64,000 nucleotides of DNA from Candidatus Enterousia sp. GTDB lineage: Bacteria > Pseudomonadota > Alphaproteobacteria > Rs-D84. A program made the position numbers and the translations under genes. The notes beneath the pieces were generated by a model that saw nothing but the letters and a program-made list of their open reading frames with translations, was not told the origin of the DNA and did not search any database. Position 1 is the stretch's first letter; every line of letters starts with the position of its first letter. The stretch lies in contig JAZLAZ010000020.1 of the NCBI GenBank assembly GCA_045613445.1, positions 74,433 to 138,432 on the forward strand, given 5' to 3'. This document shows, piece after piece, positions 10,098 to 62,251 of this stretch.

Positions 10098-10122
10098 AAT
10101 CCCCCGACCGGGGGATTTTTTA
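10096..10122. terminator. bidirectional terminator shared by parC and the MotB-like gene
   Basis: aaaATCCCCCgaccGGGGGATttttt. The stop codon of the minus-strand gene lies in the T-tract. Confidence 0.75.
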
Positions 10123-25350: not shown

Positions 25351-25378
25351 AAAAATCCCCCAAATGGGGGATTTTTTT
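25351..25378 (+). terminator. intrinsic terminator after the dsbA-like gene
   Basis: aaaaATCCCCCaaaTGGGGGATttttttt. Confidence 0.75.
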
Positions 25379-25380
25379 AT

Positions 25381-25409
25381 TGTTGAAAAATATTGAAAAA
25401 TTCAATAAA
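25381..25409 (+). promoter_or_regulatory. sigma70 promoter driving the 25.4-25.7 kb structured leader/sRNA region
   Basis: TTGAAA, exactly 17 nt spacer, TAAAAT. Confidence 0.5.
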
Positions 25410-25415
25410 ATATAT

Positions 25416-25521
25416 GCAGAACTGACAGGGATGTTGGTTCTGGGCCTTAGAAAAGCCAAAGCATTTCGGTGCAGATGCGTCGTAATCTGATGTTATCGGT
25501 GTCTTTGCACCGTTGTTTTTT
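25416..25521 (+). ncRNA. candidate ~105-nt terminated RNA (unknown class)
   Basis: Starts ~7 nt after the -10. Ends in CGGUGCA...UGCACCG (25467-73/25506-12) plus U-tract. Inner CAGAU/AUCUG hairpin. Confidence 0.35.
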
Positions 25522-25537
25522 CCCCGCCATTATATGT

Positions 25538-25636
25538 GTCGGGGTGCTGTTGTGATATGTTGAAAGCAACAGGGTCATTAAATGCTTGATTTTTCTAACA
25601 CCCCGACCGTCAATCTCGTGTGACGGTTTTTGTTTT
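25538..25636 (+). ncRNA. second candidate structured RNA/attenuator upstream of the Cys-rich gene cluster
   Basis: 9-bp closing helix GUCGGGGUG/CACCCCGAC (25538-46/25599-607) enclosing CUGUUG/CAACAG. It is stacked on terminator CCGUCA/UGACGG plus U5. Confidence 0.35.
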
Positions 25637-25747: not shown

Positions 25748-26779
25748 ATGCGGAGAATGTGGGTAATTTTTTGTTGTGTGATTTCATGCGGGGCGTCTGC
25801 TGCAACATTCAGCAGTGTTCGTGTGCCATTGTGTGGTTATGGTTATTATCGGTATGGTTCTGAATGTCGCGCTGTTGATGTTCAGGCGGATAAGTGTACA
25901 CCGATAAATGGGGTCAGTACATATCGTGTCTTTATGGATTCTACATCATTTATGTTCCAAGAACATTCCGAATTGATATGTTTGGGAACGCATATATTGT
26001 ACGAATATGATGATGAATTATTGGGTACGATGTTCAGTGGTGGCACATTGCGAACATTTGGACCGCCGATGTGTGGATATGGATATTATCGATTGAATAA
26101 CAAGTGTTACAAGAAAACAGATGCAGTTGCATCAGAATTGTGTCCTGAAAACTTTCATAAGACAGGAACGGATACAGCGTCATATATGTCGTTGTTTGCG
26201 TCTGAAAATATATGTTTGGGGACATATGGTGTGTATGAATATTCGGATTTATTATATCCGTTATATAATGGTATTTTGGTGTCTGTTGGTGCGCCGTTAC
26301 ATACTGCGTCTGATATGCGTGGTACGCCGTGCAGTGTGAATTCAGGGCATTATTATAAAATTGCGACTGCGACAGAAGATGCATTTACACATCCAGACAT
26401 TGGCGCATGTCCGACGGCCAGTGGTAAATTTGTTGTGAATACAGATTGCAAGGATATAAATACCAACGATTCAAATGTGTTGGGTAAAAATCCGGTATGT
26501 GGTGTATTGTGCAGCAGTGGTGTTTATACAAATTCTGGGGTATGTTCAGATGGTTATTGTGAACAGAATAACAAGAAAAAGCGTCTGTTTTTCAAGAAAG
26601 AAAACGGTACATACAGTATACCATTGTATTCAACACCGACAACAACGCCGTCGATAAATATTCGTTTAACGGGTGACGATGGGGTTGGACGTACATGTTA
26701 TATGAATTTGATACCAACTGTTCGTGATAACACAATACGAATACAGTATAACGATAAAACATACCACGGCATAGATTAA
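25748..26779 (+). CDS. secreted cysteine-rich protein with internal duplication (343 aa)
   Basis: Signal peptide MRRMWVIFCCVISCGASAA. Duplicated modules: (P)LCGYGYYR..x..C and ICLGT..YEY. Confidence 0.6.
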   Translation: MRRMWVIFCCVISCGASAATFSSVRVPLCGYGYYRYGSECRAVDVQADKCTPINGVSTYRVFMDSTSFMFQEHSELICLGTHILYEYDDELLGTMFSGGTLRTFGPPMCGYGYYRLNNKCYKKTDAVASELCPENFHKTGTDTASYMSLFASENICLGTYGVYEYSDLLYPLYNGILVSVGAPLHTASDMRGTPCSVNSGHYYKIATATEDAFTHPDIGACPTASGKFVVNTDCKDINTNDSNVLGKNPVCGVLCSSGVYTNSGVCSDGYCEQNNKKKRLFFKKENGTYSIPLYSTPTTTPSINIRLTGDDGVGRTCYMNLIPTVRDNTIRIQYNDKTYHGID

Positions 26780-26801
26780 AATACAGGGGGGTAAAAGAAC
26801 C

Positions 26802-27332
26802 ATGAAAAAAATATTGTTTATAATATTTGCAGTAATGATGATTGCGCCAACATTTGGTGCAGATACGAACGAGATATGCAAACGCAAAACATTGACGATG
26901 ATTGTGTTGCAAAAGAATGTAAATGGTTCTGTCAGCGACAGTGATACTGACACGATGCGTTGGGGGGTGGAATACGGGTATGATTTATTTGCAAATTCGC
27001 ATACGGAATATATCAGTGAAATTACTGGCAGTACGACATGTAATGATATTGCGGTAAAAAGTGCAATTGATGGTTCATCGAACAATGCAGGTGCGGCAGC
27101 ACCAGGGGATGCGAATACATTTTTGCGTGCTGCGACAAATGATGTTGGGTCAAATTGCTGGTGCAAGATGGATGGGCCTGTGACATCGTGGTGGGTGTAT
27201 TTGAAAACATTTGACAGTGCAGATGCGTGTGCGTCTGGGTGTACATCGTATTGTGCGAATGGTATGGCCAGAAATACAGAAATGTCCAATGGACGATTGA
27301 TGCGTCATGCGATATTTGATGCCATATGGTAA
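26802..27332 (+). CDS. secreted 7-Cys protein, CWCKM family paralog 1
   Basis: Signal peptide; NVNGS; NCWCKMDGPVTSWWVY; CASGCTSYC. Paralog of 27432-27929. Confidence 0.65.
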   Translation: MKKILFIIFAVMMIAPTFGADTNEICKRKTLTMIVLQKNVNGSVSDSDTDTMRWGVEYGYDLFANSHTEYISEITGSTTCNDIAVKSAIDGSSNNAGAAAPGDANTFLRAATNDVGSNCWCKMDGPVTSWWVYLKTFDSADACASGCTSYCANGMARNTEMSNGRLMRHAIFDAIW

Positions 27333-27364
27333 CGCGGGTGTTCATTGCAGTGTGTCACCGTACC

Positions 27365-27389
27365 GTCATACCCACGCAGGTGGGTATCC
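27365..27389. repeat. REP-like palindromic unit
   Basis: GTCATACCCACGCAGGTGGGTATCC. Same family as 28034-28118; spurious ORFs read ..LRGYD. Confidence 0.7.
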
Positions 27390-27431
27390 ATGGAAAGGGG
27401 CTGAACAAAAAAAGGATTAAAAGGGGCAAAC

Positions 27432-27929
27432 ATGAAATTATTAAACAAGCTGCTGATAATAATTTGTATATTTATAGCTACTCCGTCGATTGCGACGGAA
27501 ATGTGTGCACGAAATGATACGGTTGTAATACCATTGGATTCTAATGTAAATGGCACATCCAATGGTAATAACGCCGCCGAAGCAACATGGTGGGCGATAT
27601 TTAATTATGGGAGTATATATGGATTGTCAACATGTCTGTCTGCCGCCGAAGGTGGTAACCCCAGCGGTTCAATAGGTGTTTATACCAATGACAAGGGACA
27701 AATGTTGCCCCAAGACGAAGCGTTGGCGGGCCGTTCGGGTAAAGATGCCGATGGTAATGACCGGGGCTATTGCTGGTGTAAAATGACACACCCTGCGTCT
27801 TCGCGTTGGGTGTTCGACTTCTTGTTTTCCGCTTCGAATTGCGCTTCCAGTTGTGGTCACTACTGCGGTAGCCACACCGGGAACAATGCCGCTTTTCGGT
27901 CTGGGTTGTTCGGGTCGGTCGGCAAATGA
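27432..27929 (+). CDS. secreted 7-Cys protein, CWCKM family paralog 2
   Basis: Signal peptide; NVNGTS; YCWCKMTHPASSRWVF; CASSCGHYC. RBS AAGGGG. Confidence 0.65.
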   Translation: MKLLNKLLIIICIFIATPSIATEMCARNDTVVIPLDSNVNGTSNGNNAAEATWWAIFNYGSIYGLSTCLSAAEGGNPSGSIGVYTNDKGQMLPQDEALAGRSGKDADGNDRGYCWCKMTHPASSRWVFDFLFSASNCASSCGHYCGSHTGNNAAFRSGLFGSVGK

Positions 27930-48646: not shown

Positions 48647-49210
48647 ATGCCAAATAAAAAATTAGATTTTAAGACAGGGCAATATGTTGTTTATCCAACA
48701 CAGGGTGTCGGAAAATTATTGCGTATCGAAGAACAGACAATTGCTGGCCAGAAAATAAAAATGATGGTGATTGATTTTGAACGCAATCATATGACATTGC
48801 GTGTGCCGTTGGAACGCGCAGAAATATCTGGACTGCGCCCACTAAGCAGCATTAAAAAAATGGATGAGGCAATTGCATCCGCCAAGGGGCGTGCCGGTGC
48901 AAAGCGTATGATATGGGCGCGTCGTGCAGCACAGTACGAAGAAAACATCAATTCTGGCGATCCAATGAAATTGGCCGAAGTTGTTCGTGATTTGCAACGA
49001 CGCAGCGCTGCGGACACAATGACATTTTCTGCACGCCAGTTGTATCTGCGTGCGTTGGAACGCATGGCCCAGGAATTTGCTGTATTGCATAAAATTGATT
49101 TAGATGCCGCGTCGGACAAGATTGAAGATATTTTGGGTATCCCAAAAGAAATAGATTTGAATGCAGTTGAATCGGATGATGATGACGATATTGAAGACGA
49201 AGATTCTTAA
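48647..49210 (+). CDS. carD: CarD-family transcriptional regulator with acidic tail
   Basis: FKTGQYVVYPTQGVGKLLRIEEQTIAGQ (RNAP-interacting Tudor-like domain). Confidence 0.85.
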   Translation: MPNKKLDFKTGQYVVYPTQGVGKLLRIEEQTIAGQKIKMMVIDFERNHMTLRVPLERAEISGLRPLSSIKKMDEAIASAKGRAGAKRMIWARRAAQYEENINSGDPMKLAEVVRDLQRRSAADTMTFSARQLYLRALERMAQEFAVLHKIDLDAASDKIEDILGIPKEIDLNAVESDDDDDIEDEDS

Positions 49211-49235
49211 AAATCCCCCGATATGGGGGATTTTT
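49209..49235 (+). terminator. intrinsic terminator after carD
   Basis: aaaaATCCCCCgataTGGGGGATtttt. Confidence 0.75.
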
Positions 49236-49236
49236 A

Positions 49237-49265
49237 TTGTTTTAGTTTACATAATATGTTACAAT
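49237..49265 (+). promoter_or_regulatory. putative promoter of leader RNA copy A
   Basis: TTGTTT, 17 nt spacer, TACAAT. Same distance to hairpin P1 as the copy-B promoter. Confidence 0.4.
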
Positions 49266-49273
49266 TGTAACCG

Positions 49274-49433
49274 TCATCAGGATTTCTGATGATGGGGCGT
49301 CGAAACCTCTATCTAACGTACAAAGCAAACTCCAACCTCAGGTTGGAGGGCGGCGAATATTTTGAATAAGCCCGCTATTTCGTTAGATGTAGTTTCGAAC
49401 CTCCAACCACTTGAATGTTTTCAGTGGTTTTTT
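49274..49433 (+). ncRNA. structured leader/sRNA copy A (unknown class) with terminator/antiterminator/anti-antiterminator boxes
   Basis: P1 at 49274-92. CUCCAACC 49330-37, GGUUGGAGG 49341-49, CCUCCAACC 49400-08. Terminator AACCACU/AGUGGUU 49405-11/49423-29 plus U6. Homolog at 61666-61837. Confidence 0.6.
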
Positions 49434-49449
49434 GTTTTTTGGGGGGATA

Positions 49450-49659
49450 TTGCGTAGGTTAAAAATATTTTTTTGTTTGTATTTTATTTTGCTGTCAAAT
49501 GTTTGTTTGGCAGTTGGTATTGCATCAACTAATTATGTAGAAGGTGCAATACAAACACGTGTTGATATTTCTGCCAAGGCAAATCAAACAATGGCGGGTA
49601 CATATAATGTGTCTGGCACATTGACTGTTCCAACCCCACCATTACCAGTACTGGAATAA
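49450..49659 (+). CDS. small secreted protein (about 70 aa), head piece of the LRR locus
   Basis: TTG start, then RRLKIFFCLYFILLSNVCLA signal peptide, then IASTNYVEGAIQ...VPTPPLP. The ORF-track ATG 49411 lies inside the terminator loop. Confidence 0.45.
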   Translation: MRRLKIFFCLYFILLSNVCLAVGIASTNYVEGAIQTRVDISAKANQTMAGTYNVSGTLTVPTPPLPVLE

Positions 49660-49660
49660 T

Positions 49661-51274
49661 ATGAAACGATTATTGGTTGTATTTTTTACTTTGTTTACAT
49701 TTACGGCAAATTCTGCCCAGATTGCTAATGTGGAATACATACATAAACTGATTGAACAACAACATGGCATAACTGTTCCGTATAACAGTGAATTGACCAA
49801 TCCACAGGTTGCTGCCAATATGAAATATTTGCTGACAGCCATTGATGCTGCAAACAGTATATTAAGCGGTGGAAAAATAACAGATTATGGTAACAGTGAA
49901 TATGCGACAACTGTCGTCACAGATACCGTTGCGACATTGGAAATGGTGCGTGACCATATTCGAAATTACAAATTCTTTGCGACGACCACCCCTGATACAA
50001 CCAGTTTTAGTTTTACGATATCTGCATCAGGTGTGTTTCATATTGATTGGGGTGACGGAACGCGTGAATCATATCGTAAAACGAATACATCTACCATAAC
50101 ATACAGTCATGAATACGCGACTGCGGGTGAATATGTAATAAAAATTGGCGGATACAGAACAGGTGGAAATTCGATAAGTTTTACCAACAATAAAAATTTA
50201 GGTAAAATTAAAGGCAGCCTGGGGGCAATATTTTCTACGATAAAAAAATCAAACGGTACAGTCAGTAATCCAAGCTTTCAGAACTTGTTTTCTGGTTGCA
50301 CAAATTTAACCGGTGAAATACCAGCAGAATTATTTGATGGTGTATATGGTCAGCCAGTGAATTATATGTTTACCGGTATTTTTGCTGGTTGTGTTTCTTT
50401 GACAGGTGTGATCCCAGAAAATTTATTTGCAGGGGTGGCTGGTGCACCAATTCATGCAGTTTTCAATAGTGTGTTTCAGAATTGCTATGGACTAACAGGG
50501 GAAATACCAGAAGATTTGTTTGCTGGCATTTCTGGGGCGCCAGCATATGGAATGTATGATAATACTTTTAAAGGATGTACGGGATTAACGGGTAATATTC
50601 CTGAAAAATTGTTTGCTGGCATTTCTGGGGCGCCAGCATATAGAATGTATGCTAATACTTTTGAAGGATGTACGGGATTAACGGGTAATATTCCTGAAAA
50701 ATTGTTTGTTGGTATTTATGGACAGCCAAATGCTAATATGTATGCTAGTACATTTTCTGGCTGCTCGGGTTTGACAGGTTCAATTCCTGATGGTTTATTT
50801 GGCGATTTGTCTGGAAAACCAGCCAGTTCTATGTTTCATAATACTTTTTTAGGTTGCAGTGGGCTGACAGGATCTATCCCTGCAAATTTATTTGGTGATT
50901 TAATTGATGCGCCGGCGTATGCAATGTTTCATTTTACATTCAGTGGATGTACTGGATTGACAGGTGAAATCCCTGATGGTTTATTTGGCAGTTTATCTGG
51001 GGATCCTGCATCTTACATGTTTGCAGGAACTTTCCTGAATTGTAGAGGGTTGACAGGTGGTGTGCCAGATAATTTATTTGGTAATATAACAGATAAATGT
51101 GTAGATGCAAAATTTTATCGAACTTTTGAAGGTTGTTCAGGATTAAATGGAGAATCTGCAAAGATGAACGGTGAATTTTTGTATGATATTTGGCCACATT
51201 GTAATATGGGATCTATGTATCGTGGGGCAACGGGGTTGATCGATTATGCTGATATACCAAGTGCATGGAAATAA
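49661..51274 (+). CDS. secreted leucine-rich-repeat surface protein (about 9-10 tandem 31-aa repeats)
   Basis: Signal peptide ...TANSA. A beta-sandwich-like region (FHIDWGDGT...HEYATAGEYVIKIGG). Repeats of the form F.GC.GLTG.IP..LF.G..G.P.... Confidence 0.75.
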   Translation: MKRLLVVFFTLFTFTANSAQIANVEYIHKLIEQQHGITVPYNSELTNPQVAANMKYLLTAIDAANSILSGGKITDYGNSEYATTVVTDTVATLEMVRDHIRNYKFFATTTPDTTSFSFTISASGVFHIDWGDGTRESYRKTNTSTITYSHEYATAGEYVIKIGGYRTGGNSISFTNNKNLGKIKGSLGAIFSTIKKSNGTVSNPSFQNLFSGCTNLTGEIPAELFDGVYGQPVNYMFTGIFAGCVSLTGVIPENLFAGVAGAPIHAVFNSVFQNCYGLTGEIPEDLFAGISGAPAYGMYDNTFKGCTGLTGNIPEKLFAGISGAPAYRMYANTFEGCTGLTGNIPEKLFVGIYGQPNANMYASTFSGCSGLTGSIPDGLFGDLSGKPASSMFHNTFLGCSGLTGSIPANLFGDLIDAPAYAMFHFTFSGCTGLTGEIPDGLFGSLSGDPASYMFAGTFLNCRGLTGGVPDNLFGNITDKCVDAKFYRTFEGCSGLNGESAKMNGEFLYDIWPHCNMGSMYRGATGLIDYADIPSAWK

Positions 51275-51340
51275 AAATTCCCCATTTCTTGCATGTTGGG
51301 AAAATACGTGCTATTATTTGCGTGATAAAGGATTTTTATT

Positions 51341-61602: not shown

Positions 61603-61630
61603 TAAAATCCCCCGTTTGGGGGATTTTTTT
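61603..61630 (+). terminator. intrinsic terminator after rpsD
   Basis: aaaATCCCCCgttTGGGGGATtttttt. Confidence 0.75.
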
Positions 61631-61657
61631 GACAAAACTTCTGAATTTCAATAGAAT
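61629..61657 (+). promoter_or_regulatory. promoter of leader RNA copy B
   Basis: TTGACA, 17 nt spacer, TAGAAT. Confidence 0.55.
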
Positions 61658-61665
61658 ATAAATTG

Positions 61666-61837
61666 ATATCAGGTTTTCTGATGTTGGGGCTTCGAACCCC
61701 CGTGCAATGCATCATAATATTATGATGAAATCACTTCAACCGTGGGTTGGAGTTCGGTGAATATATTGAATAAACCCGCTATACCTTGTAATAGTTTCGA
61801 ACCTCCAACCACTTGAGATATATTTCAGTGGTTTTTG
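61666..61837 (+). ncRNA. structured leader/sRNA copy B
   Basis: P1 at 61666-84. CUUCAACC 61734-41, GGUUGGAG 61745-52, CCUCCAACC 61802-10. Terminator AACCACU/AGUGGUU plus U5. Extra AUCAUAAUAUUAUGAU hairpin. Confidence 0.6.
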
Positions 61838-61861: not shown

Positions 61862-62251
61862 ATGCGGGGGATTGTATTTTTTTTGTTTGTTTTTTCCGAC
61901 CATGACTTTGGGCGCAATACCATCAACTAAATATGTACAGGGGTGATCCCAGAAAATTTATTTGCAGGAGTGGCTGGTGCACCAATTCATGCAGTTTTCA
62001 ATAGTGTGTTTCAGAATTGCTATGGACTAACAGGGGAAATACCAGAAGATTTGTTTGCTGGCATGTCTGGGGCGCCAGCATATAGAATGTATGATAGTAC
62101 TTTTGAAGGTTGTTCAGGATTAAATGGAGAATCAGCAAAGATGAACGGTGAATTTTTGTATGATATTTGGCCACATTGTAATATGGGATTTATGTATCGT
62201 GGGGCAACGGGGCTGAGCGACTATGTAGAAATACCAGATTCATGGAACTAA
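61862..62251 (+). pseudogene. collapsed copy of the small-ORF + LRR locus
   Basis: An ATG signal-peptide stub (stop after 22 codons) and ..STKYVQG are fused out of frame to VIPENLFAG... Only 2 repeats plus the C-terminus remain. Nearly identical by eye to 50410-50560 and 51120-51274. Confidence 0.65.

Follow-up and report, generated by a model that had tools for sequence, protein, structure and literature searches.

Comparative sequence evidence for a structured leader RNA family with two mutually exclusive folds ahead of secreted-protein genes in Candidatus Enterousia

Leader RNAs that can form either an intrinsic terminator or a helix competing with it have been described in several systems. 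Cyclic di-GMP (c-di-GMP) riboswitches occur in many copies ahead of genes for exported or surface proteins, and T-box leaders choose between terminator and antiterminator within a long, multi-helix RNA. BglG/SacY, PyrR, and ANTAR proteins act by protein-dependent antitermination. Transcripts terminated by riboswitches are also known to act in trans, and cis and trans roles are compatible with each other. Here, we describe a leader RNA from Candidatus Enterousia sp. (order Rs-D84), noticed by a sequence-only reading at positions 49237 to 49449 of a 64,000-nucleotide (nt) stretch of DNA (GenBank assembly GCA_045613445.1, contig JAZLAZ010000020.1, positions 74,433 to 138,432 of the forward strand), which we refer to as the window. 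On strong comparative evidence, the leader represents a previously undescribed, lineage-restricted family of structured RNAs of about 165-250 nt and is a member of no described family; its function we infer from its folds and gene context.

We consider it likely that each copy is a cis-acting transcription-attenuation leader, with a terminator and an antiterminator that exclude each other, ahead of a gene for a secreted protein. Comparison of homologous sequences shows the anatomy of the element, its association with secreted-protein genes, and compensatory changes that preserve each of the two folds. The first copy, termed W1, has the following parts, where MFE stands for minimum free energy and bp for base pairs:

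49237..49265, plus strand: W1 promoter, read from the sequence (-35 box TTGTTT 49237-42, 17-nt spacer, -10 box TACAAT 49260-65)
49274..49292, plus strand: P1, the 5'-terminal hairpin UCAUCAG-GAUUU-CUGAUGA, from sequence and covariation
49294..49309, plus strand: S1 hairpin, GGGG/CCUC, whose loop holds UCGAAA (49300-05), the 5' strand of S2
49311..49318, plus strand: 5' strand of P3, AUCUAACG, with its partner at 49381-88
49330..49349, plus strand: P5 hairpin, with box 1 CUCCAACC (49330-37), loop UCA, and box 2 GGUUGGAGG (49341-49)
49352..49372, plus strand: P6, stem GGC/GCC around the conserved loop GAAUAUUUUGAAUAA (49355-69)
49374..49393, plus strand: alternative hairpin P7, GCUAU (49374-78) with GUAGU (49389-93), whose loop is the 3' strand of P3
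49381..49388, plus strand: 3' strand of P3, CGUUAGAU, with its partner at 49311-18; seen in the MFE fold
49393..49398, plus strand: 3' strand of S2, UUUCGA, pairing with the S1 loop as an H-type pseudoknot, or as a long helix if S1 is open
49400..49408, plus strand: box 3, CCUCCAACC, which with box 2 makes a 9-bp antiterminator and shares its last 4 nt with the terminator
49405..49433, plus strand: intrinsic terminator, AACCACU/AGUGGUU (49405-29) plus U6, in the MFE fold and supported by covariation

The promoter, P1, boxes 1-3, and the terminator of W1 lie, on rereading the sequence, exactly where the sequence-only reading had put them. That reading proposed that box 2 pairs either with box 1, leaving the terminator intact, or with box 3, dismantling it, and covariation backs both pairings. 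The three boxes are real, but the picture they gave was incomplete, lacking P3, S2, and the exclusive pair of P3 and P7. A block taken for conserved and single-stranded is actually the loop and 3' arm of the covarying P6, followed by one strand of P7. P7 of W1 is incompatible with P3 and shares 2 nt with S2. In the MFE fold of W1 (-64.1 kcal/mol; z = -6.18 versus shuffled controls), S2 is seen as a helix between UCGAAA(C), shortly past the 5' hairpin, and the (G)UUUCGA that directly precedes box 3, and P3 is also drawn. The terminator loop exceeds 8 nt and hence was overlooked by a simple terminator scanner.

Across the family, the order from 5' to 3' is the -10 box, P1, S1, a short junction, the 5' strand of P3, P4, and an A-rich linker, followed by P5, P6, CAC(A/U)AUU, the 3' strand of P3, AU(U/A)G, UUUCGAA, box 3, and the terminator. 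P1 is a hairpin of 7-11 bp of any sequence, and S1 has the form GGGG-UGUCGAAA-CCCN. P4 is an optional hairpin of 0-90 nt, and P5 comprises box 1, a loop of 1-12 nt, and box 2. P6 is a stem of 3-5 bp with the nearly invariant loop GAAUAUAUUGAAUAA, which holds an inserted stem in some homologs. The type A copies with a long P4 (L014:3313-3570, L021, L031, and L037; L numbers denote loci) often carry a GC-rich hairpin with a U run behind it, e.g., GGCGCGCC-GUAU-GGCGUGUUUUUU, and this insert looks like an intrinsic terminator nested within the leader, judging from its sequence. Type B copies have a box 3 that lacks 1 nt relative to the other types.

Homologs were sought with a degenerate DNA pattern composed of UUUCGAAC, box 3, and the terminator tail, and both patterns used demand TTTCGAAC. 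Scanning one genome per species returned 37 loci, 31 of them true, and the metagenomes returned 40 loci, about 32 of them true; the scan of viral contigs returned none. Because the DNA patterns demand TTTCGAAC, variants of S2 were overlooked and were regained by the covariance model. This model, R1, was run over 481 kb of loci retrieved for the purpose and gave 79 matches at E < 0.01, including the type C copies and about ten copies overlooked by the DNA pattern. Pattern scans and covariance model together yielded about 75 homologs. Almost all the named sources are Candidatus Enterousia or alphaproteobacterial metagenome-assembled genomes (MAGs) from animal or human guts. Housekeeping proteins encoded on the homolog contigs share 60-95% identity with their counterparts in the window, which places the window in the same lineage. 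The order Rs-D84 has genomes of less than 1 Mb and a fermentative lifestyle, and such genomes carry few regulators (PMC12306168). Our full-text literature search found no paper on RNAs of the Rs-D84/Enterousia lineage.

Since MAFFT alone misaligned P3 and the boxes, we aligned 45 type A and B sequences by hand with N padding (alignment A5). A model-made alignment of 66 sequences (A6) was unreliable in P4 and P5 and served for S1, S2, and the terminator only. P1 and P3 were located by complementarity search; hence, we added an alignment-free control comparing cognate with non-cognate strands.

The fold that retains the terminator (OFF) is paired in 94% of the cells of A5. Its covariation score was 0.434, compared with at most 0.075 for slid partners, and none of 500 column shuffles reached it. 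Pairs changed on both sides in A5 amount to 6/7 in P1, 9/9 in P3, 4/4 in P6, 5/8 in the terminator, 3/9 in P5, and 2/4 in S1. P3 was present in all 58 full-length homologs and took 43 distinct sequences. In the alignment-free control, 98% of cognate P3 windows but only 20% of non-cognate ones formed at least 6 bp, and at least 7 bp were formed by 93% of cognate versus 14% of non-cognate P1 arms. P5, the pairing of box 1 with box 2, is paired in 95% of cells, and changes in box 1 alone are mostly compatible with G.U pairs. The P6 stem varies, for instance among UGC/GCA, UCAC/GUGA, CGAC/GUCG, and GGU/ACC. P1, P3, and the terminator differ wholly in sequence between copies with their pairing kept, and the frequent G.U pairs (35/45 at the base of P1) indicate selection on RNA rather than DNA.

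In A6, all four pairs of S1 were changed on both sides; variants of S1 include GAGG/CCUC, GGGA/UCCC, GGAG/CUCC, and GGGCU/AGCCU. S2 was paired in 99.5% of the cells of A6, with 3/6 pairs compensatory; it is invariant in the pattern-selected set, and its compensatory sets came from copies recovered by the model, namely UGGAAA/UUUCCA, UAGAAA/UUUCUA (also in W3), UCAGAA/UUCUGA, UUAGCAA/UUGCUAA, and UUCAAAA/UUUUGAA. S1 and S2 together probably form an H-type pseudoknot. Two further pairings were tried and rejected. The lower stem GGGG:CCUCC, an extension of S2 drawn by RNAfold, needs other registers in GAGG and type C copies, whereas S1 fits all variants. A kissing interaction between the loops of P1 and P6 had no consistent register, and showed no covariation as the P6 loop is invariant.

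The competing fold (ON) is preserved as well. The helix of box 2 with box 3 is paired in 98.6% of the cells of A5; at one position, 26 sequences have C:G and the other 19 have U:A. Box 3 has ten distinct cores (CCUCCUGACC, CCUCCAACC, CCCGACC, CUUCCCGACCG, CUUCCGACC, CCUCCUGCC, CCUCCUGAGCC, UCUCCAACC, AUGCCCGACC, and CACCCCGAC), each with a matching box 2 and box 1. Moreover, a 1-nt insertion (L076b) and deletions (type B, L033b) are co-ordinated in all three boxes. Complementarity of at least 9 bp linked box 2 to its cognate box 3 in 87% of cases, versus 10% for non-cognate combinations. P7, with ACAAU before and AUUGU after the 3' strand of P3, is paired in 99.1% of the cells of A5; at one of its positions, 35 sequences have A:U and 10 have U:A, with both sides switching in perfect concert and independent of box type. 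Four distinct P7 cores were found: ACAAU/AUUGU, RCUAU/AUAGU, and, in types C/C2, GUCAU/AUGAU and GAAUCU/AGAUUU. P7 together with the box 2:box 3 helix and P6 makes a compact three-way junction, which is incompatible with P3. That two mutually exclusive folds are both under selection is the signature of a switch. The element also has the makings of a leader platform: it occupies a 5' untranslated position on the same strand as the gene with a promoter of its own, ends in a stem and U run, and contains a covarying helix that overlaps the terminator.

Next, we compared the energies of the two folds with ViennaRNA constraints. For full-length RNAs, the terminator fold was more stable by a mean of 12.7 kcal/mol; with the RNA cut before the 3' arm of the terminator, its lead shrank to 6.4 kcal/mol. 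The unconstrained MFE was the terminator fold in 69% of the RNAs. As the terminator fold is favoured, the leader would be a default-OFF attenuator that needs an effector for readthrough. The box 2:box 3 helix is nearly perfect, whereas box 1:box 2 has wobbles or mismatches at the two loop-proximal pairs in about 40% of copies. The weaker box 1:box 2 would let box 3 invade once P3 and S2 release the OFF fold.

From these observations, a sequence of events can be proposed. A near-consensus promoter of the sigma-70 type would start the RNA at the protective 5' hairpin P1. In the OFF state, S1 would form and its loop would pair with the UUUCGA preceding box 3 (S2), and the long-range P3 would close a junction with P4, P5 (box 1:box 2), and P6. 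Box 3 would then be free, so that the intrinsic terminator could form and transcription would halt 14-60 nt before the gene. In the ON state, box 2 would leave box 1 and pair with box 3, closing the three-way junction with P6 and P7. With the 3' strand of P3 enclosed in P7 and the terminator deprived of its base, RNA polymerase would read into the secreted-protein gene. An effector would tip the balance to ON, or free the RNA from OFF. Termination, readthrough, the default OFF state, and the existence and nature of the effector are elements of this model.

The sequence-only reading could match the element to no known family, and our searches agree, as Rfam gave no match for any copy or homolog. 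With Rfam 15 (4227 models), the whole window at the gathering threshold returned four tRNAs only, and ten loci with homologs of types A, B, and C returned tRNAs only. At E up to 10, positions 49150-49550 returned only terminator-like chance matches on the hairpin upstream. ARAGORN found four ordinary tRNAs elsewhere in the window and no tRNA or transfer-messenger RNA (tmRNA) at the three copies. We had considered a permuted tmRNA or tRNA remnant (GGGGCGUCGAAACC...GUUUCGAACCUCCAACCA) and dropped the idea, as S2 is a covarying helix and the element is multi-copy; the T-loop-like UUCGAA is base-paired in S2, according to covariation. As for the ops element GGCGGUAG, positions 49237-49449 contain no GGCGGTAG, the nearest string being GGGCGGCGAAT. 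The ANTAR signature, i.e., two tandem hexaloop hairpins with A at 1 and G at 4, the second overlapping the terminator, is absent, and the P6 loop has 15 nt.

Only two copies had been reported from the window. Both were confirmed, but there is also a third, divergent one:

61629..61836, plus strand: copy W2, from sequence and model match, with promoter TTGACA (61629-34), 17 nt, TAGAAT (61652-57)
W2 5' part, plus strand: P1 61665-85, S1 61686-701, P3 61703-07 with 61786-90, P4 hairpin 61710-27
W2 3' part, plus strand: box 1 61734-41, box 2 61745-53, P6 61756-76, P7 61778-95, 3' strand of S2 61795-800
W2 end, plus strand: box 3 61802-10, terminator 61807-33 plus U5 to 61836
25383..25632, plus strand: copy W3, type C-like, from model match and sequence, with promoter TTGAAA (25383-88), 17 nt, TAAAAT (25406-11)
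W3 5' part, plus strand: P1 25417-42 (GGGA loop), S1 25443-57, S2 UAGAAAA 25448-54 with UUUUCUA 25591-97
W3 middle, plus strand: P3 25459-66 with 25580-87, P4 25467-512, box 1 25522-29, box 2 25536-46, P6 25547-72
W3 end, plus strand: box 3 CACCCCGACC 25599-608, terminator ACCGUCA/UGACGGU 25606-27 plus U5

W1 and W2 are 78% identical over the aligned element. The exchanges noticed earlier in P1 of W2 (U:A to A:U and C:G to U:G) and the CUUC of its box 1 are indeed present, with pairing kept. The promoter of W2 is better than that of W1. W2 has an MFE of -50.9 kcal/mol (z = -3.09 versus shuffled controls), and R1 scored W1 at 87 bits and W2 at 54 bits, each of them being itself in the seed. W3 matched R1 with 21 bits (E=5e-5), and its MFE fold has the same architecture as W1 and W2 (z=-4.84). 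It brings compensatory changes in S2 (UAGAAAA/UUUUCUA) and in box 2:box 3, and is closely like the leader at the CarD locus of other strains (L001). Together, the z-scores and model scores of W1-W3 point to a signal beyond chance. A run of the model with its filters off found no copy beyond W1, W2, and W3 in the 64-kb window; a weak match at 2198-2266 (9.7 bits) was a mere terminator hairpin, AACACCCCCAUUUGGGGGUGUUUUUU.

A bidirectional terminator hairpin, AAAAAUCCCCC-N3-5-GGGGGAUUUUU, has four exact pattern matches in the window versus none expected:

10098-10117, 25354-25373, 49212-49232, and 61606-61625: sites of the hairpin AAAAAUCCCCC/GGGGGAUUUUU, by pattern search

Three of the four sites lie directly upstream of the three leader promoters. 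The fourth, at 10098, stands between convergent genes, which indicates a general terminator of the organism that insulates the leaders from upstream transcription. We therefore rejected the AAAAAUCCCCC...GGGGGAUUUUU hairpin as part of the leader and regard it as the common bidirectional terminator of this organism.

The genes behind the three copies are as follows, where aa stands for amino acids, ORF for open reading frame, and SD for Shine-Dalgarno sequence:

49450..51274, plus strand: genes presumably under W1, from translations; a 69-aa secreted ORF at 49450-49659 (SD GGGGGG 49441-46) and a 537-aa protein at 49661-51274
61937..62251, plus strand: remnant of a repeat-protein gene behind W2, frame-shifted and internally deleted, from blastn and translation
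25748..27929, plus strand: genes behind W3, from ORFs; a 343-aa secreted Cys-rich protein at 25748-26779 and secreted proteins with a CWCKM motif at 26802-27332 and 27432-27929

W1 lies in the gene order CarD gene with its terminator, W1, 69-aa ORF, 537-aa gene, TyrRS. The start codon of the 69-aa ORF is 16 nt past the U tract of W1, and homologs of this ORF also stand behind leaders in the Enterousia MAGs L013 and L020. The 537-aa protein has a signal peptide and 31-residue LTGxIPxxLF repeats. Within its gene, 93-nt (31-residue) tandem repeats that are 81-94% identical occur at 50489-50790, likely a site of repeat-number variation. The sequence-only reading had placed both copies upstream of leucine-rich repeat (LRR) loci. 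A 31-residue-repeat gene does follow W1, but the LRR label of the 537-aa protein is a resemblance only, membership being unsupported by Pfam, NCBIfam, and PDB, and the gene behind W2 is a remnant. Pfam, NCBIfam, and PDB sequence searches gave no match for the proteins downstream of W1 and W2, nor for those behind W3. The 343-aa protein behind W3 is 41% identical to the product behind a type A leader in L027.

W2 is flanked upstream by the gene for ribosomal protein S4 and downstream by the repeat-gene remnant, then rho. Its remaining frame, 61943-62251, corresponds at 92-95% identity to two separated parts of the gene at 49661-51274, namely 50402-50588 and 51122-51274. The signal-peptide part upstream is out of frame, and the ATG at 61862 runs into a stop; the start region holds G5 and T8 runs. 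The gene is accordingly regarded as a decayed paralog.

Across the homologs, promoter and terminator keep their places. Among 56 homologs, 50 have a -10 box whose end is 27-29 nt from S1, and 49 match TATAAT at five or more of six positions. Every homolog ends in a hairpin and U run, with a stem of 7-10 bp, U5-7, and a GGUUUUU tail. The downstream ORF starts 14-60 nt past the U run in most copies, which leaves no room for another promoter. A signal-peptide-like N-terminus was present in the downstream product in 60 of 65 distinct cases, usually with 5-11% cysteine, and searches of Pfam, NCBIfam, and PDB sequences gave nothing significant for these proteins. The commonest gene type behind the leaders encodes a secreted protein, about 145-175 aa long, in which Cys residues and the motif C(W/Y)CKM..P..S.WV are conserved. 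Members occur in the window (26802-27332 and 27432-27929) and at L006, L008, L010, L012, L014, L016, L021, and L035, and the family had no match in Pfam or NCBIfam.

Leaders and genes appear to have been reshuffled. Types B (W1, W2) and C (W3) coexist in one genome, and homologous downstream genes stand behind differing leader types. Contigs with an identical CarD protein fall into two groups by the leader at that site: L004 has the same leader as W1 (98% identity), whereas L001-3 and L005 have a longer type C2 leader of the same architecture with another downstream gene, and their box set covaries (CCCCACC / GGUCGGGGAG / CUUCCCGACC). Over the CarD-TyrRS interval (49208-51340, compared with L001:3565-5840, L002, and L003), the window and L004 contain a type B leader with the repeat protein, and in the other CarD-identical strains a type C2 leader is followed by the gene for a Cys-rich protein of 278 aa and two more ORFs. 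The break point lies directly past the CarD terminator, indicating that promoter, leader, and gene are swapped as a unit. Leader copies are often several per contig and clustered. L042:6628-8000 has three leaders within 1.4 kb, two of them in tandem without a clear ORF behind, and L076:277-745 has a divergent pair 80 nt apart; more clusters were seen at L043:1728-10276, L013:507-5221, and L006:411-5266. This clustering suggests islands of leader-plus-surface-gene units.

What could move such a leader from OFF to ON? The near-invariance of S2 and of the P6 loop suggests specific recognition. The conserved unpaired nucleotides are in the P6 loop and the junctions and differ between types A/B and C. 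Our single likeliest guess, offered tentatively, is that the effector is a small molecule or second messenger, so that the leader would be an orphan riboswitch, with an RNA-binding protein close behind. The leaders might then constitute a riboswitch class of their own, or else types A/B and type C might be two related classes on one switching scaffold, co-ordinating a large and rapidly reshuffled set of secreted Cys-rich and repeat proteins at the RNA level; this extension is as tentative as the guess about the effector.

Several observations weigh against an attenuator switched by an effector. A5 was curated around the helices, so the paired percentages lean toward the model; the non-cognate controls and the model alignment lessen this bias without removing it. 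The support for box 2:box 3 comes from roughly ten variant classes with few independent substitutions, and L041 compensates box 1:box 2 yet keeps a U-U mismatch in box 2:box 3. The stability gap is large, such that the antiterminator might rarely form unaided, and no helper was identified. There is no unpaired pocket common to all types, the internal loop of P6 being different in type C. Finally, the W2 leader is intact though the gene behind it is a remnant, which may mean that the short RNA has a function of its own.

A protein effector is the next explanation to be considered. An RNA-binding protein may bind the S1 loop and S2 or the P6 loop, block the lock made by P3 and S2, and let box 2:box 3 form; we regard this as possible but doubtful. 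The sequences of S2 and of the P6 loop hardly vary, although compensatory changes in S2 are tolerated. No metabolic theme unites the regulated genes, and many copies per genome, with types B and C together, would fit a regulon with one or two regulators. However, no candidate regulator gene lies beside the copies in the small fraction of any genome inspected, and the leader has no RAT (ribonucleic antiterminator) or ANTAR-like features, its P5 loop, for example, ranging from 1 to 12 nt. The small number of regulators in genomes under 1 Mb (PMC12306168) also speaks against a protein.

Rather unlikely in our view, either as an addition or as an alternative to the cis role, is that the terminated RNA of 165-250 nt is itself the product, a trans-acting small RNA (sRNA) or protein sponge, with incidental readthrough. 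Like sRNAs derived from 5' untranslated regions or terminated by riboswitches, each copy has its own strong promoter, a stabilizing 5' hairpin, and a U-tailed terminator, from which a stable short transcript is expected. The strongly favoured terminator fold, the conservation of W2 despite its remnant gene, and the CCUCC in box 3, which is anti-Shine-Dalgarno-like, fit as well. Unlike for such sRNAs, we identified no target or seed for the leader RNA. A tblastn search of about 545 kb (the window and loci L006-L082) with E. coli Hfq and CsrA among the queries gave no match to Hfq, CsrA, CspA, or NusG, a negative that carries no weight for or against any of the readings. Furthermore, the element keeps a fixed orientation 14-60 nt from a promoterless secreted-protein ORF in nearly all 65 distinct contexts, box 2:box 3 and P7 are kept by selection that is sensible only for an antiterminator, and the box sequences vary between copies of one genome.

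Less probable still is a physical or kinetic sensor, in which transcription speed, pausing, NTP, Mg2+, pH, or temperature would set the fold. The two folds share most strands, the choice between them hinges on whether P3 and S2 form before box 3 emerges, and no pocket common to all types was seen. Kinetics alone, however, can hardly explain why the P6 loop and S2 are nearly invariant across genera, and no conserved pause-like element was noticed, without a systematic search for one.

Ribosome-mediated attenuation, with the AGGAGG of box 2 as the SD of a leader peptide starting from UUG in the P6 loop, is very improbable. In W1, a UUG at 49362, 12 nt after box 2, opens a frame of 31 codons that ends with a stop at 49455-57, overlapping the beginning of the first gene. 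Over 58 homologs, by contrast, the frame ranges from 3 to 96 codons and ends between 70 nt before and 200 nt after the terminator, a start codon is missing at this place in at least ten copies, the reading frame changes with the length of P3, and box 2 of type C is not SD-like. We rejected leader-peptide attenuation for want of a conserved frame, length, or start codon in these homologs, and the W1 frame (49362-49457) is probably fortuitous. A selfish or neutral DNA repeat resembling MITEs (miniature inverted-repeat transposable elements) or REPs (repetitive extragenic palindromes) and without RNA function would account for elements that are multi-copy, clustered, and variable between strains, and we give it hardly any credence, as pairing in the helices is preserved through compensatory and G.U changes on just one of the strands, the positions of promoter and terminator and the orientation to genes are fixed, P1, P3, and terminator sequences differ wholly with pairing kept, and viral contigs contain no copy.

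Large, well-supported new families of structured RNA are now rare, and this one offers an unusually clear natural two-state RNA switch, with 7-8 helices, a probable pseudoknot, and two folds kept by compensatory change. Its hosts in the Candidatus Enterousia/Rs-D84 lineage are uncultured gut bacteria with genomes under 1 Mb, in which gene regulation is almost unexplored. The leaders precede the genes likeliest to mediate contact with host or partner cells, namely those for orphan secreted proteins, Cys-rich or with repeats, which strains exchange as cassettes of leader and gene. If the leader is a new riboswitch, it would co-ordinate a surface repertoire at the RNA level in a genome-reduced and probably host- or partner-dependent lineage with few protein regulators. 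Once identified, the trigger could provide a handle on the timing of surface-protein display and possibly a new ligand or mechanism for the catalogue of riboswitches and attenuators. The seed alignment and covariance model make the family searchable in metagenomes and metatranscriptomes.

How does the predicted leader compare with the known systems? With BglG/SacY-RAT, PyrR, TRAP, and ANTAR systems it shares mutually exclusive terminator and antiterminator, a predicted termination by default, and an external factor that would shift the balance. In contrast to them, it has none of their motifs and is far larger (165-250 nt, 7-8 helices), and no cognate protein gene was seen nearby. The T-box is likewise a long multi-helix leader with a choice between terminator and antiterminator, and the ACCA of box 3 pairs with the UGGU of box 2; however, the leader lacks an Rfam T-box match, the T-box sequence, and a specifier, and it precedes secreted-protein genes rather than aminoacyl-tRNA or amino-acid genes. 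In preQ1-I, SAM-II, fluoride, and ZTP riboswitches, as here, the loop of a hairpin close to the 5' terminus is paired to a strand adjoining the expression platform, in our case with a 2-nt L1, an S2 of 6-7 bp, and no L2. Unlike in those riboswitches, loop 3 of the leader is a domain of 90-190 nt (P3-P6), and the consensus sequences are unrelated. The c-di-GMP-I (GEMM) and c-di-GMP-II riboswitches differ by the lack of any sequence or structure match in Rfam and by the P1, S1/S2 pseudoknot, P3 junction, and P7 found here. They resemble the leader in being covarying multi-helix 5' leaders with a terminator opposed to an alternative helix, present in many copies ahead of exported or surface-protein genes. 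In gene context and copy number, the leader most resembles the multi-copy c-di-GMP riboswitches that precede surface-protein genes.

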